From a virus: DNA of 64,000 nucleotides. The position numbers were made by a program, and so were the translations under genes. The notes under the pieces were generated by a model, which worked only from the letters and a program-made list of their open reading frames with translations, did no database searches and was not told the DNA's origin. Positions 21,573 to 60,114 of this stretch are shown piece by piece. The stretch lies in IMG/VR virus record IMGVR_UViG_3300019927_000008, positions 2,888 through 66,887 of that record. The stretch is one strand, 5' to 3'. Within the stretch, counting starts at the first letter, position 1. The number at the start of each line of letters is the position of its first letter.

Positions 21573-21719
21573 CGGAAGAGCCGGGATTCGAACCCGGAAT
21601 CCGGAGTGTACGGGGACTTACTGAAAGAGCGATTAGATAGCACTCGATCATCAGCACTCCCTACTCCGATGAACTTCAGTTTAACCCGAAGCGCCTTTGT
21701 CCAATTTGGCTACTCATCC
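21573..21719 (-). ncRNA. tRNA-like RNA (147 nt) with about 76-nt variable region and 8-nt anticodon loop
   Basis: Acceptor GGATGAG/CTCTTCC, Leu/Ser-type D arm, anticodon stem CTTCG/TGAAG with loop GGTTAAAC, T arm CCGGG-TTCGAAT-CCCGG; promoter at 21725-21755. Confidence 0.8.
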
Positions 21720-48491: not shown

Positions 48492-50306
48492 CTACTGTCT
48501 CCACGGAGCCGCCTTCGGGAAGTCCCAATGGGTCGGAGCTTCGTCGGTGATCGCCTCGACGAAGTAGTCCGGAGGGTTCGTCCGGCTCATCACCGTGTCG
48601 AACTTCTTGTCGATCACGTAGAAGCTCGCGGCTTCTTCAGGCTCCGGACCCCGAACCGCCCGTCCGACAGCTTGGATGATGTTCGTCGCCGCCTTCTCCA
48701 TGTACCATTGCCACTCGTTCTGCTCGTTGAGCAGATAGGAGACACGACTGTCCCCCATGTAAGCGTAGGGGACTTTGACGAGGACTTGCCACCGACACCG
48801 ATCTTCGTAGAGGTCTGTCCCCTGCATCATGGTCGGAGAGATCAGGATGTCTTTGTCGCTGTTCTGCCAGCGGTCGATGATGGCGTCCTGATCGAAGTCT
48901 TCTTCGTGAACGATGCAGTTCTCTTCACCGAGGGATTCTCCTATCTTCTCCGCTCGGCTGTAGGACACCGAATGGATCAGACCCTTCTCTCCCTTGTGAT
49001 GGGAGTGAATCTCACGGATCATGTCCATCGCTTCGGGCCAGTTCTTCTCTTCATCATCGCCGGACATCTCACCGACCATCGTGTTGAGGTGAATCCGACG
49101 ATGATCCACCGGGAAGGGCGTGGGTTTCGAGATGAACTTTGTACGCCCCGGAAGGCCGAGCCGTCGCGCCCACTTCTTGACGTTACCCCGGAAGGGGATC
49201 GTCGCTGAAGTGATGAGCCGACGCCGACCACGGGACCACACGAAGTCAGCGAGGAAGTCGTCAACCCGAACCGGCTTGACTTCGATTCCCTTCGTTGTTT
49301 CTCTGGACCCCGGAATCCGCACTTCGTTGATGTTGACGACCCAACCACGCCCCGCTTCGTAGGTCTTGAGACAGTAGTCGAGCTTCCGGAGGATGTCTTC
49401 ACACTCTTCGACTTGGCTCTGCTTTTCCTCGATGTCTTCGTACTGATCGACGAAGTTCGAAGCTCGCCCTCTGATCTCCATGAGAAGGTCTTCGACGTGT
49501 TCGAGGCGATCAGCGTTCCAGTCTGCGCGATCACCAGCATCACCGTAGACTTCTTCGGGAAGCGACCACGGCGAGAGAGTGAAGCCAGCGAAGAGGCTCG
49601 ATGCCTGTCCTTCGGAGTTGTGACCCTCGTCTACCGTGACGAGATCACGCCGGTCGAAGGAAATCTGCTCGCCACTCTCGATCCGAACCGGAACGTAGTT
49701 GTCTACGATCAGCATTGCGAAGGTGAGAACACCGATCCCATCCTCCATCGCTTCGGCTTTTGCTCTCCAGTAATTACACCCGGCCTTCTCGCGGCAAGAC
49801 TCGTCGGGAGAAGAACGAACAGGACAGTCAGCACAGTTCGTCCCACCTTCTTCGCAGTAGTAGTCTCGCCGCGACTTCAACATCGAGACGTAATCCTGAA
49901 GGTCGTCGTCTTCAGCGAGTTGGTTACGGAGTTGCTTCTGCGGTGTCGTGTAGAACGACTTCCCTGATTGAAGCCCGTCGATGCTGACGCCGAAGTGATC
50001 CCGAAGCTCGTCCTGTCGCTGGTTCAGCGCCGTGATGACACGGCCAACAGCGACGTTGAACGGCGACTTCCCGATCCCGGTCGGCCCCTCGATGATTACG
50101 TTGTCGTAAGAGTCGAGGAAGAAGGCATCGAGTGTTTCGTACAGGATTTCATCCTGATAGTCTCGAAAGCCGGGGAACGGGAACAGTTCATCACCGATGT
50201 CGTGAAGGTACGACTTGAAGCCCTCCCGCGTTTCGGGGTAGTCCGAGTATTTGGTTTCGAGCGATACCACAGGGTCCGTATCGAGCATCATTGAGAATGG
50301 ATTCAT
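48492..50306 (-). CDS. DinG/XPD-family SF2 helicase with Fe-S cluster
   Basis: GPTGIGKS, four-Cys cluster, VDEGH, TSAT, QGTDL and QAVGRAVR motifs. Confidence 0.9.
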   Translation of the reverse strand: MNPFSMMLDTDPVVSLETKYSDYPETREGFKSYLHDIGDELFPFPGFRDYQDEILYETLDAFFLDSYDNVIIEGPTGIGKSPFNVAVGRVITALNQRQDELRDHFGVSIDGLQSGKSFYTTPQKQLRNQLAEDDDLQDYVSMLKSRRDYYCEEGGTNCADCPVRSSPDESCREKAGCNYWRAKAEAMEDGIGVLTFAMLIVDNYVPVRIESGEQISFDRRDLVTVDEGHNSEGQASSLFAGFTLSPWSLPEEVYGDAGDRADWNADRLEHVEDLLMEIRGRASNFVDQYEDIEEKQSQVEECEDILRKLDYCLKTYEAGRGWVVNINEVRIPGSRETTKGIEVKPVRVDDFLADFVWSRGRRRLITSATIPFRGNVKKWARRLGLPGRTKFISKPTPFPVDHRRIHLNTMVGEMSGDDEEKNWPEAMDMIREIHSHHKGEKGLIHSVSYSRAEKIGESLGEENCIVHEEDFDQDAIIDRWQNSDKDILISPTMMQGTDLYEDRCRWQVLVKVPYAYMGDSRVSYLLNEQNEWQWYMEKAATNIIQAVGRAVRGPEPEEAASFYVIDKKFDTVMSRTNPPDYFVEAITDEAPTHWDFPKAAPWRQ

Positions 50307-52501
50307 TAGTCGTCAGCCGCCTTGAAGTCAGCATCGAGCGTTTTGTAGTGCGTCTTCTCTACTTCGATCTTCTCGGCTCGCTCTCGAAGCTCCGCTTTCA
50401 CAGCGTTCGAAGAGACACCCGCTCCGGTCGAGAGCTTCTGAAGTAGCCGTTCCGCCTCTCGATCATCGAGGGTGATCGTTTCTTCTCTCTTCGTCTGAAC
50501 GTCTTTGTCTGTTTCTTCGCTGTTCTCGTGCGTCTCCCAACCGACTGTGATTTGACTCATGTTATTTTTGAGGTGCGATCAGAATTATTCCAAGGATCGC
50601 CGCCGACAGCGACCCGACCATCGCTCCGAAGGATATTGCTGTGAAGACACCCCCACCATAGCCTGTCACATCGAGGAGGGCCATGGTTATGACTGCGGTT
50701 AGGGCTGTCCAACACGACGCTAAGATCATTTCGTGGTCTGTCATGGAGTGAATCGAAGTACCCACTTTTTCCAAGAGATCACTACTTCGCCGCTGTCGGG
50801 ATCGGGGTCAACACTAACAAGCTCCGATTCTTCGTCACCGGAGACGAATCTTTCTTCGACTTCGATCACGGCCTTCTCGATGTAGTCGTCGAGTTGATCC
50901 CACTCACCTCCTATCTCGGGAAGGTCGTGTTCCGTTCCGGAGAGATCGGTCAGAGTGTCGTACTCGAAGCGGTACGTCTTCGTCTCTTCGCACTCCCACC
51001 CTTCACCGTAGCGCCCTTCGACGTAGCGACATTGGAGGTGGAAGATCGCCGCTCCATCCTCGATGATGGGGTCGGCTCGGTGGTCATCCATCTCCCACTC
51101 GTGTTCGTGGTGATGGGGTTCGATGATGCCTCCCCGGATGAGGTCGCGTCGGGAAGTACCGGGTGGGTAGCCCCCCATCTACAACCCTCCGTTAAGGCTA
51201 CTGTTCTGACACTCGGTACAGACATCGCCTATGTTCAGAACGGCGTTGCTACACCCTATTTTACGACACTTGATTACACTCATTACAGGATTTCCTTCCC
51301 ACAGTCTTCGCACCGCGCTTTCTGCACCGGAGGCTCGTCCGGGTGGCGTTGCACTTTACCACTCTCGATGTTCACCGATCCACAGTACGGGCAATCACCG
51401 AGGCCATTGATTTCCAGAAGTGCCCCCGTTGAGTTGATCTGGATTCGGTCATCATCGAGAATCCATTTCAGGGCTTTCGCTTCACCAACAGCACGTTTCC
51501 CTCCACGTTCTTCTGGAATGTATTCACCGTCCAGTTCAGCCAGCTTGTCTCGAACTTCTTTTTCTGATTTCATGACTTATGTCTCCGAAGTTGCGTCTTA
51601 CCGAACGAAGTCCCGAAGGTTCGACAGCCCGGCCTTCCCGAGGCCATCAACATCCAGAAGCTCACCATCATCCGCTTGCTGAATGTCCAGAGTGGTACTG
51701 TAGCCGTCATCGTGGAGATTATCAGCCGTCTTCTCCCCGATGTAATCGACTTCGGACCAGTCCATCTCATCGAGGTCCATCATGTCGATGCCGGAGTCGG
51801 GTTTGTGTTCGAAGTGCCCCGCTTCGATCTCGTTGTTGAAGGACACTCTTCGCTCCATCCGGTGTGTGTTGTCCTTGTTCCGACCCGGAGTGTCACTCCG
51901 TAGCAGAACGATCTCTTCGTCGATGTAGAGAATCTGAACGTGTTCGTTGTGTCGCGTTTCGTAGACCTGTCCAGCTTCGGGTTCGACTTGAGTGATCTCT
52001 TTCATCATGTATCGTGGTATGCCGCGATCCAGTCTTCGTAGCCTCGCTCTTCTGCCTCGTCGTTCAGTAGACTGACGAGGAACGTTCGGTGGTGATCCTT
52101 CAGCGGCCACGGATCACTAACCATCATCAATTCGAGGAGTGTACGAAACTCCCAATAGCTCAGATCAGGGTTCGCATCTCTCGGGGTTTTCATGAATCAG
52201 GCTCGTTGAGGTCCACGTCCTCCCACTCGTCTTGAAGTTCTTGCTTCGTGATGCTGTTCTCGACTACATCAGCTAACTCTCGGATGTAGTTCGCCAACGG
52301 CGTCGGGTCTTCCTCGAAGCCATCTTCTTCCTCGATGGCGTCAGCAAGTTCCCGAGCTTGGTCAGCTTCGTAAGCCGCTTCTTCACCACCTGCGGTGATG
52401 ATAACCGTGAATCCACTCTCGGTCGTTGTCGCTTTGATTTGGCCCGTCTCTTGGTTCAGAATACTTTTCGTCACGTACTGCTGTCGTTCTGTTTCTTTCA
52501 T
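50306..52501 (-). other. Cluster of small accessory ORFs, including an HhH-motif protein (51598 region)
   Basis: Coupled ORFs; VDYIGEKTA and VDGLGKAGL helix-hairpin-helix repeats. Confidence 0.6.
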
Positions 52502-52535
52502 GTAGCGTGGTTTTCGGTTCCCATTATAAGGACTT

Positions 52536-52598
52536 GGGCATCGTCAGGGCAACAGCGTCCATCTCGTTGCCAACACCGGGAAGCCCGGTGTTTCGCCC
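52536..52598 (-). ncRNA. Type II hammerhead ribozyme HHR1
   Basis: GGGC-GAAA-C[ACCGG/CCGGU]GUU^[GGCAAC/GUUGCC]-CUGACGA-U-GCCC; loop I GGAC can pair with tail GUCC. Confidence 0.9.
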
Positions 52599-52738
52599 GT
52601 CAGAAGTCTCGCGCCGTTCGCTCTTCGAGGTGATCCGGACAGAGTTTGTCTCCATCGTAGTCATGGAGATTGTCTGTCGCGGTGCAATGCTCACAGGTTT
52701 CCTCACTTTCATTCCCCCAAGGGGTTATTCCGGGGATT

Positions 52739-53068
52739 CTATCCATCATCTTGAACCACATCGGTTGCCGCTCGTTCAGCGGCGTCAGCAGGCTGTTCAG
52801 CGAGGGCCGCGTGTTCTTCCACCACGTCGATGAAGGTGTTGATGATCGTCTCCGAAGTCGCTCGCTTAGAGACGCTTGTGCCTTGCTTGGCGTGCGTCTC
52901 TTTGACGAGTCGGTCGAAGGCGAGGGAATCATTCTCACGAAGCTCCTGTGCTTCGTCAGCGAACGAAGCGCAGGCCGCCGCCGCTCGGAACGCCGCCGTG
53001 TTCCGAACCAGATCAGCCAGTTCGTCGTTGCTCATACTGCCGAGAGCTTGTGGGTTGTCGTCAGCCAT
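52739..53068 (-). CDS. Hypothetical protein
   Basis: First gene after the promoter and mini-tRNA; strong codon bias. Confidence 0.6.
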   Translation of the reverse strand: MADDNPQALGSMSNDELADLVRNTAAFRAAAACASFADEAQELRENDSLAFDRLVKETHAKQGTSVSKRATSETIINTFIDVVEEHAALAEQPADAAERAATDVVQDDG

Positions 53069-54331: not shown

Positions 54332-54771
54332 GCTGGCCGAACGAAGGCGTCAGGATCGAGCATGGCACGTTCGATGATGAACTGTGCCGTCTCGTATCCC
54401 TTCCCTTCGGGAGCCTCAAACTCGGCAGAGTCGATCTCCCGAGTCGGTCCATCTTGGTAGTCGATCTCCGCCGCTTCCGGACTCTCCGTAAGTTCCGTGT
54501 TCGGAGAGTTTGACGGAGCGGAGTTTTGTACGAAGACGGAACTTCGTGTTTCGTAGAACAGCGAGAGGTGTGTAACGTCGCTCATTGGTCGTTCCTCCAC
54601 GTCATCGCTTCAGCGAAGCGGCCCATGATCGCGCCGAGGCTGGTCGTGTCGTACTGTTCTTGAATGTTCACGTCGCTGTAACTATAGCCGCCGGATGTAG
54701 ACTGCGTGTTTTTGTGTTCCATTAGGGATTTAGACTGCGTGTCACACTTTCCAACCCCCCTCAAGGGTTGA

Positions 54772-54838
54772 TGGCCTTCCTCTTCATGGGGAACGCGGCC
54801 AGTCGTTCCCGACGCCGGGAAGCCCGGCGTTTCGTCAT
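54772..54838 (-). ncRNA. Variant type II hammerhead ribozyme HHR2
   Basis: C-GAAA-C[GCCGG/CCGGC]GUC^[GGGAACG/CGUUCCC]-C(A)UGAAGA-G; loop UGGCC pairs with tail GGCCA; directly after the promoter at 54838-54868. Confidence 0.65.
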
Positions 54839-54870
54839 TAAGATCGAAGCCCGTCGCTCCGAGTCTTAGC

Positions 54871-60053: not shown

Positions 60054-60114
60054 GGGCATCATCAGGGGAAGGGCGACTAACTCCCTCCCAACAGGGACGA
60101 TCCCTGTTTCACCC
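60054..60114 (-). ncRNA. Type II hammerhead ribozyme HHR3
   Basis: GGGU-GAAA-C[AGGGA/UCCCU]GUU^[GGGAGGG/CCUUCCC]-CUGAUGA-U-GCCC; loop AGUC pairs with tail GACU; starts right after the promoter at 60115-60145. Confidence 0.9.

Follow-up and report, generated by a model that had tools for sequence, protein, structure and literature searches.

What a hammerhead ribozyme does within the mRNAs of phages and archaeal viruses has been asked since 2011, and the locus described here, HHR1, adds a canonical-core halovirus example to that question. The locus lies on the minus strand of a 64-kb window, which is the whole stretch of DNA that was analysed and belongs to a 71,835-bp IMG/VR virus record. HHR1 is real and, as judged from its sequence and that of its relatives, almost certainly functional, and it is probably a genuine, selectively maintained element that self-cleaves a long early/middle polycistronic RNA and thereby splits the transcript into blocks with hairpin ends.

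The virus and its gene neighbourhood

The HSP90-like protein of this virus (946 aa) shares ~40% identity with its counterparts in HSTV-2, HRTV-7, and HCTV-6 (Mincapvirus, Hafunaviridae) and, by this protein comparison, the source is an uncultured haloarchaeal tailed virus, a distant relative of Mincapvirus. The minus strand from ~64 kb to 47.5 kb is a tight co-directional array of small acidic ORFs ending in a Rad3-type helicase (48492-50306), and Pfam and PHROGs name almost none of these ORFs. The dense packing of the genes around HHR1 is consistent with long transcripts. HHR1 itself occupies a 98-nt gap in the array between a mini-ORF of 49 aa and an ORF of 103 aa; seven small ORFs, or ~2.2 kb, separate it from the helicase that lies downstream. 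The first-pass annotation had placed the beginning of the ribozyme at the stop codon of the upstream ORF (52600), and the TGA is indeed found 2 nt before stem II (Table 1); the leader of ~70 nt that it expected on ORF 52190-52501 likewise agrees with the distance from the predicted cut at 52571 to the ATG at 52501, which is 70 nt.

Architecture of HHR1

In the order of the RNA, HHR1 is composed of a first strand of stem II, the GAAA segment, the stem III hairpin, H17, the stem I hairpin, the CUGACGA segment, an extra U, and the second strand of stem II, which is the type II permutation, with loops closing stems I and III and with stem II open. All the elements that had been noticed from the letters are present, namely the full core (CUGACGA, GAAA, GUU), stems I, II, and III (7, 4, and 8 bp, respectively), the additional U between A9 and stem II at 52540, and the pseudoknot GGAC/GUCC between loop I and the 3' tail, in which 52560-52557 face 52533-52530. 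H17 is U52572, a non-G residue as the NUH triplet needs (here GUU), and the cut is therefore predicted between 52572 and 52571, the same position that was proposed at first and the one that the core numbering indicates. Within stem III, A52591 pairs with U52573 (A15.1-U16.1), and this pair is A-U in 13/13 homologues.

HHR1 is devoid of the short core insertion beside C3/stem I that is typical of the HHmeta and HHphage variants and is a canonical-core relative of the saltern and halovirus variant hammerheads that lies outside that variant subgroup. Of the 13 relatives that were aligned, 10 likewise have the extra U after A9 and the remaining three deviate at or beside A9; this U is also seen in unrelated phage copies, most of which were retrieved with patterns requiring that U.

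Table 1. Coordinates of HHR1 and its parts, of its neighbouring genes, and of further hammerheads (positions in the window unless an accession is given)
Feature	Position	Strand	Basis or remark
HHR1, complete type II hammerhead ribozyme, 63 nt	52536..52598	(-)	sequence, Rfam RF02276, descriptor scan, own covariance model R1
Stem II, 5'-proximal strand GGGC	52595..52598	(-)	pairs with 52536-52539; 100% paired in 13 homologues
Core G12 A13 A14 plus A15.1 (GAAA)	52591..52594	(-)	invariant in the alignments
Hairpin of stem III, 8 bp with the A15.1-U16.1 pair counted, CUU loop	52573..52591	(-)	52591-52584 with 52580-52573; sequence and fold
Predicted cleavage site, triplet GUU, after U17 (52572) and before G1.1 (52571)	52571..52572	(-)	core numbering
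Stem I hairpin, 7 bp, 10-nt loop AGAUGGACGC	52548..52571	(-)	52571-52565 with 52554-52548
Core C3-A9 CUGACGA (52547-52541) and one extra U (52540) ahead of stem II	52540..52547	(-)	sequence
Stem II, 3'-proximal strand GCCC	52536..52539	(-)	sequence, fold, descriptor, alignment
Pseudoknot, loop I side GGAC	52557..52560	(-)	partner 52530-52533
Pseudoknot, 3'-tail side GUCC	52530..52533	(-)	alignment; AA between stem II GCCC and GUCC
Upstream mini-ORF, 49 aa, CxxC...CPDH	52600..52749	(-)	TGA 52602-52600, 2 nt before stem II
Downstream acidic ORF, 103 aa	52190..52501	(-)	ATG at 52501; predicted 70-nt leader after cleavage
HHR2, canonical type II hammerhead	60054..60114	(-)	descriptor; own model 89.3 bits; predicted cut 60090/60089
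Variant hammerhead copy	54767..54839	(-)	own model 26.8 bits, E ~9e-6; syntenic with the G002 64.0k copy
Serpecor1 ncRNA, annotated Hammerhead II	MN901521.1 63562-63629		Halorubrum virus Serpecor1 (HF1 group)

Detection and chance controls

The Hammerhead_II model of Rfam (RF02276), with which a search had been suggested, supports HHR1 in one respect and falls short in another: it aligns to the ribozyme over its full length with 31.3 bits and remains under the gathering score of 37, which is an operational curated threshold and reflects no structural feature. The corresponding E-values are 1.2e-4 in a 351-nt search and 5.6e-6 in a 71.8-kb genome search, and the alignment attributes the shortfall in score to the inserted U and to the 2-nt gap ahead of the pseudoknot. 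Whole-window Rfam searches, run both with the gathering threshold and by E-value, missed HHR1, which was lost to the search filters.

The matches of a first DNA pattern scan were mostly due to chance. When the 64-kb window is scanned with a descriptor of our own, which calls for the core, the GAAA segment, three helices, and a residue other than G at H17, exactly two type II hammerheads emerge, HHR1 and a second copy at 60114-60054, named HHR2. Conversely, 200 dinucleotide-preserving shuffles of the window yield a mean of 0.125 loose descriptor matches, and no match with stems of at least 5/4/5 bp occurs in any of the 200 shuffled windows. Moreover, HHR1 scores 72.9 bits with our own covariance model R1. 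HHR1 is not a chance motif. As to its folding, the minimum free energy (MFE) structure of 93 nt includes all three stems, while that of 221 nt keeps stems I and III and loses stem II to long-range pairing with the upstream ORF, which suggests that the folding of HHR1 may depend on kinetics or on ribosomes translating the abutting mini-ORF.

Relatives, synteny, and covariation

Pattern scans and an alignment-based search led to one complete related virus, three to four further uncultured virus contigs, and one short metagenome contig. Specifically, the genome G002 (71,444 bp, with terminal repeats) carries four canonical hammerheads, and the contigs L214, L216, L217, and L220 carry one to three each; the metagenome pattern scan added just one further close copy, on a single metagenome sequence that was recovered twice (L129 and L154). 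Single-protein searches for relatives of the genes flanking HHR1 found none, and the relatives were reached with an alignment query. Likewise, blastn of HHR1 and HHR2 against cultured phages returned no relevant match, and a genome scan, in which 2 of 66 loci satisfy the descriptor, revealed no haloarchaeal provirus. Neither the Rfam model nor our own detects a hammerhead in the cultured HSTV-2 and HCTV-6, so that viruses of this type can do without the element.

Two related uncultured viruses have HHR1-type copies at the corresponding place among their genes. The G002 copy at 59.8k is flanked by homologues of both neighbours of HHR1 (79% and 32% identity), the lower value being that between ORF 52190-52501 and the gene downstream of the G002 hammerhead. 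This copy and those at L214:18147 and on L129 likewise abut the stop codon of a small mini-ORF with a Cys motif, which is CxxC...CxxC in G002 and L214 and CxxC...CxxxH in L129.

A covariance model built from six copies was used to align 13 copies from 6 loci, and 96.8% of the alignment cells of the three stems and the pseudoknot are paired. Changes on both sides of a pair, i.e., compensatory ones, occur in 55 cells, compared with a mean of 15.8 in shuffled alignments, and none of 500 shuffles reaches four of the five covariation measures; when the partner strands are slid out of register, pairing falls to 39-53%. Covarying pairs amount to 5 of 7 in stem I and 5 of the 6 modelled in stem III, and two of the four pseudoknot pairs, all of them standard in 13/13 sequences, covary as well. 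Stem II is always paired and barely varies, so that covariation neither supports nor contradicts it. Fitting the 13 copies to the model biases their alignment towards the structure; a hand-checked MAFFT alignment of an 8-sequence version gives the same compensatory changes. That the uncultured clade as a whole retains its hammerheads at the same gene boundaries while their stems covary speaks for a role in mRNA processing that is under selection.

Some of the related contigs harbour hammerheads of unusual build. Just upstream of the HSP90-like gene, the copies at L214:8660-8736, L216:7366-7467, and L220:8633-8726 (all on the plus strand) contain a hairpin of 6-7 bp inserted in the core between position 4 and G5, the remainder being canonical; the flanks of the insert (CGAAG...CGG) are conserved and its stems differ among the three contigs. 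A targeted scan of IMG/VR for such core-hairpin hammerheads found none beyond these three. At L216:14970-15085 (+), an otherwise canonical hammerhead has its stem III enlarged by an AT-rich insert of ~55 nt.

Further hammerheads in the window

HHR2 shares with HHR1 the GUU site, the extra U, and a pseudoknot, in this case AGUC/GACU, and its stem sequences are unrelated to those of HHR1. It follows directly on a 31-nt palindrome, and downstream of it come an ORF of 60 aa and the HSP90-like gene. The G002 copy at 68.7k is its syntenic counterpart, and Rfam gave HHR2 no score.

The variant copy at 54.8 kb retains an intact stem I (7 bp), stem III, and pseudoknot (UGGCC/GGCCA). Its stem III is near-identical to that of HHR1, with one compensatory change from A-U to G-C. 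The core of this copy has the sequence C-A-UGAAGA, and neither strand of stem II is present; in their place, GGAA opposite UGAC could form a stem II remnant of G-C, tandem G.A, and A-U pairs. The copies found at the same gene position in relatives deviate at A9, with CUGAUGC at L216:13689 and CUGACG-U at L214:14266.

Comparison with known hammerheads

Descriptions of type II hammerheads with a pseudoknot, examples from salterns and haloviruses among them, go back to 2011 (Perreault et al., PMC3088659). The first-pass annotation had called such ribozymes known from phage and saltern metagenomes and their role unclear, in agreement with that paper, and the precedent is closer than was stated, as it extends to HF1/HF2 and to Serpecor1. 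The family of HHR1 is a described one and is already annotated in this virus group. It has in common with Rfam RF02276 the core, the permutation, the pseudoknot, and an intergenic site in a phage-type gene array, and it differs from the consensus of that family by the one extra U after A9 and by a shorter spacer before the pseudoknot.

The nearest known counterparts are the HHphage ribozymes of HF1/HF2 and the Serpecor1 element, which have the same pseudoknotted type II architecture and belong to the Hafunaviridae, the family of the window virus or one close to it. The Serpecor1 hammerhead is located in the early region, follows immediately on the stop codon of the CDS upstream, and stops 12 nt short of the helicase gene, the distance to the Rad3 helicase start being 12-13 nt for the HF1-group copy, whereas HHR1 is distant from the helicase and is one of several copies per genome. 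The core of the HF1 group is the variant C-UA-UUGACGA, with inserted bases next to C3, in contrast to the canonical core of HHR1; moreover, the Serpecor1 loop I (AGUUGGUCGC) is close to that of HHR2 (AGUUAGUCGC) and less so to that of HHR1 (AGAUGGACGC). The canonical core, set against the Serpecor1 variant in a comparable place of the early region, indicates that HHR1 is a canonical-core relative in a neighbouring lineage. As regards the extra core residue, an additional nucleotide in the core has been described for the (+) hammerhead of CChMVd (De la Pena and Flores 2001, J Biol Chem, pmid 11454858). This viroid ribozyme is of type III and of unrelated origin, and the one extra core residue is what it shares with HHR1. 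In the viroid the residue reportedly stands between A9 and G10.1, a place at which U is well tolerated.

Several hammerheads between co-directional small genes, as in the window, also occur in prophages of Clostridium scindens, Azorhizobium caulinodans, and Agrobacterium tumefaciens (PMC3088659); those clusters belong to bacterial prophages, whereas HHR1 belongs to a virus of an archaeal host living at high salt. A comparable clustering is seen in two phage contigs that are apparently bacterial (GC 0.58), with four type II hammerheads each, 260-400 nt apart (L039:7279-8261 and L061:10862-11936, both on the minus strand). Each of these hammerheads stands just upstream of a GAGG-type ribosome site and, in most copies, the 3' tail AUCAG could pair with the complementary core CUGAU, a hint at a second, inactive fold.

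Proposed role and alternative readings

From the motif, its non-randomness, its covariation, and its synteny we infer that HHR1 cleaves and that cleavage has consequences for the mRNA. Once the 63-nt motif is transcribed, the three stems would form, as would the pseudoknot of loop I with the tail, and the 2'-OH of U52572 would attack the neighbouring phosphate, so that the polycistronic RNA is severed downstream of the CxxC mini-ORF and upstream of ORF 52190-52501. The GC-rich hairpin of stem III, with a 2',3'-cyclic phosphate, would form the 3' end of the upstream product, and the downstream product would begin with a 5'-OH at the stem I hairpin, at the head of the 70-nt leader. HHR1 and the copies at 60.1 kb and, if active, at 54.8 kb would divide one long transcript into blocks whose ends are no longer tied to promoters or terminators, so that the stability and the translation of the blocks could differ. 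There are precedents for such processing: hammerhead clusters of prophages cut native polycistronic RNAs of ~2 kb in vitro, and the 5' end of a major early transcript of HF2 maps within 3 nt of the hammerhead cut (PMC3088659); in addition, three type II hammerheads are active in vivo in D. vulgaris (PMC8782182). For the window virus itself, a search for RNA runs listed none.

Cleavage might instead be conditional, i.e., tuned by intracellular Mg2+/K+ or by translation of the mini-ORF, and serve to regulate the downstream block rather than to process the RNA constitutively. In one form of this reading, a ribosome terminating at the stop codon of the mini-ORF would mask stem II together with a portion of stem III, and in the HHR1-type copies the stop codon does either precede stem II by 2 nt or fall within it; the predicted long-range pairing that removes stem II would provide an alternative state, and control by salt is proposed for the saltern and halovirus variants in PMC3088659. 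The same paper reports, however, that a saltern variant relieved of its core insertion, and hence with a consensus core, cleaves co-transcriptionally and nearly quantitatively, and the core of HHR1 is fully canonical. Moreover, the abutment of the stop codon may merely reflect genome compaction, and a helix between the 5' flank and the tail that would compete with the pseudoknot, possible in HHR1 and HHR2, was rejected as a switch because it is not conserved in G002. On balance, conditional cleavage appears unlikely. It is decidedly improbable, in turn, that the tail contains an independent promoter giving rise to a leaderless mRNA, with the hammerhead only trimming or insulating read-through from the upstream transcript. 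The sequence CTTATA (52530-52525) fits the haloarchaeal TATA consensus, YTTAWA, and its centre is ~26 nt upstream of the ATG at 52501, a suitable spacing, but this reading was devised post hoc, when the sequence had already been seen, and CUUA follows directly on the pseudoknot in several copies (CUUAGG, CUUAAG, CUUAUG) in which the next ATG is ~15 to >40 nt away. Since these distances vary among the copies, CUUA looks like a feature of the RNA, and the TATA box was rejected as the main reading.

The ends left by hammerheads, a 5'-OH and a 2',3'-cyclic phosphate, are substrates of the RtcB ligase. Segments bounded by two hammerheads could accordingly be meant for circularisation or re-joining by the archaeal enzyme, a reading that fits the presence of two or three hammerheads on one strand of a single gene array; we consider it very improbable, as such segments are 2.2-7.5 kb long and as alternative RNA products, for which the clustered prophage hammerheads were tested, went undetected according to PMC3088659. 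Lastly, HHR1 might be a chance motif or a decaying relic without present function, with the degenerate copy at 54.8 kb and the cultured relatives HSTV-2 and HCTV-6 that have no hammerhead as points in favour. This is hardly credible in view of the shuffle controls and of a position that is conserved across viruses whose neighbouring proteins are merely 32-79% identical, and the compensatory changes in every variable helix already contradict it.

Self-cleavage that divides a long transcript is thus the preferred reading, and it can be extended to the whole clade. In the extended form, the hammerheads, three or four in number, which occupy fixed gene positions and of which some adjoin a repeated TAAGACT-type motif and some have a core hairpin, would make up a virus-encoded system of RNA punctuation: every block of the early transcript would receive hairpin ends with a 5'-OH or a cyclic phosphate that evade host 5'-end-dependent decay or sensing, or that are re-joined or circularised by the host RtcB, and the part of HHR1, as a member independent of a promoter, would be to release the block with the helicase. 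So broad a scheme is quite unlikely to hold. HHR1 alone leaves current knowledge unchanged and, because the window virus cannot be grown, the cultured HF1/HF2/Serpecor1 system is better suited to functional study.

Repeated motifs and other structured elements

A 31-bp palindrome, TAAGACTC-N15-GAGTCTTA, is found in gaps between minus-strand genes near 63.9, 61.8, 60.1, 56.1, 53.1, and 41.2 kb, with half-sites at 54.8 and 43.6 kb, and exact copies of TAAGACTC number 12 in the window against ~2 expected. The palindrome could be a viral promoter, an operator, or an RNA hairpin. A TAAGACTC-type motif ends where HHR2 begins at 60.1 kb, and the related TAAGACTYAAC stands 31-34 nt upstream of three of the four G002 hammerheads, while motifs of this type are absent upstream of the HHR1-type copies.

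Downstream of the pseudoknot, at a distance of 3-7 nt, a conserved GGGA(C/A) is seen in HHR1 (52522-52519), in HHR2, and in the G002, L214, and L129 copies; in G002 it is part of an 18-nt repeat, GGGACACAACCUUCCGAA, that precedes two start codons. Pairing of GGGA(C/A) with the CCC at the end of stem I plus C3 is a possibility. An upstream ORF starting from the AUG of AUGGGA was rejected, as the frames differ between copies.

Elsewhere on the minus strand, tRNA genes and tRNA-like elements cluster at 42278-43499 of the window, four of which pass the Rfam gathering score, and weak tRNA-like Rfam matches are given by 42875-42950 and by a 147-nt element at 21573-21719 (-).
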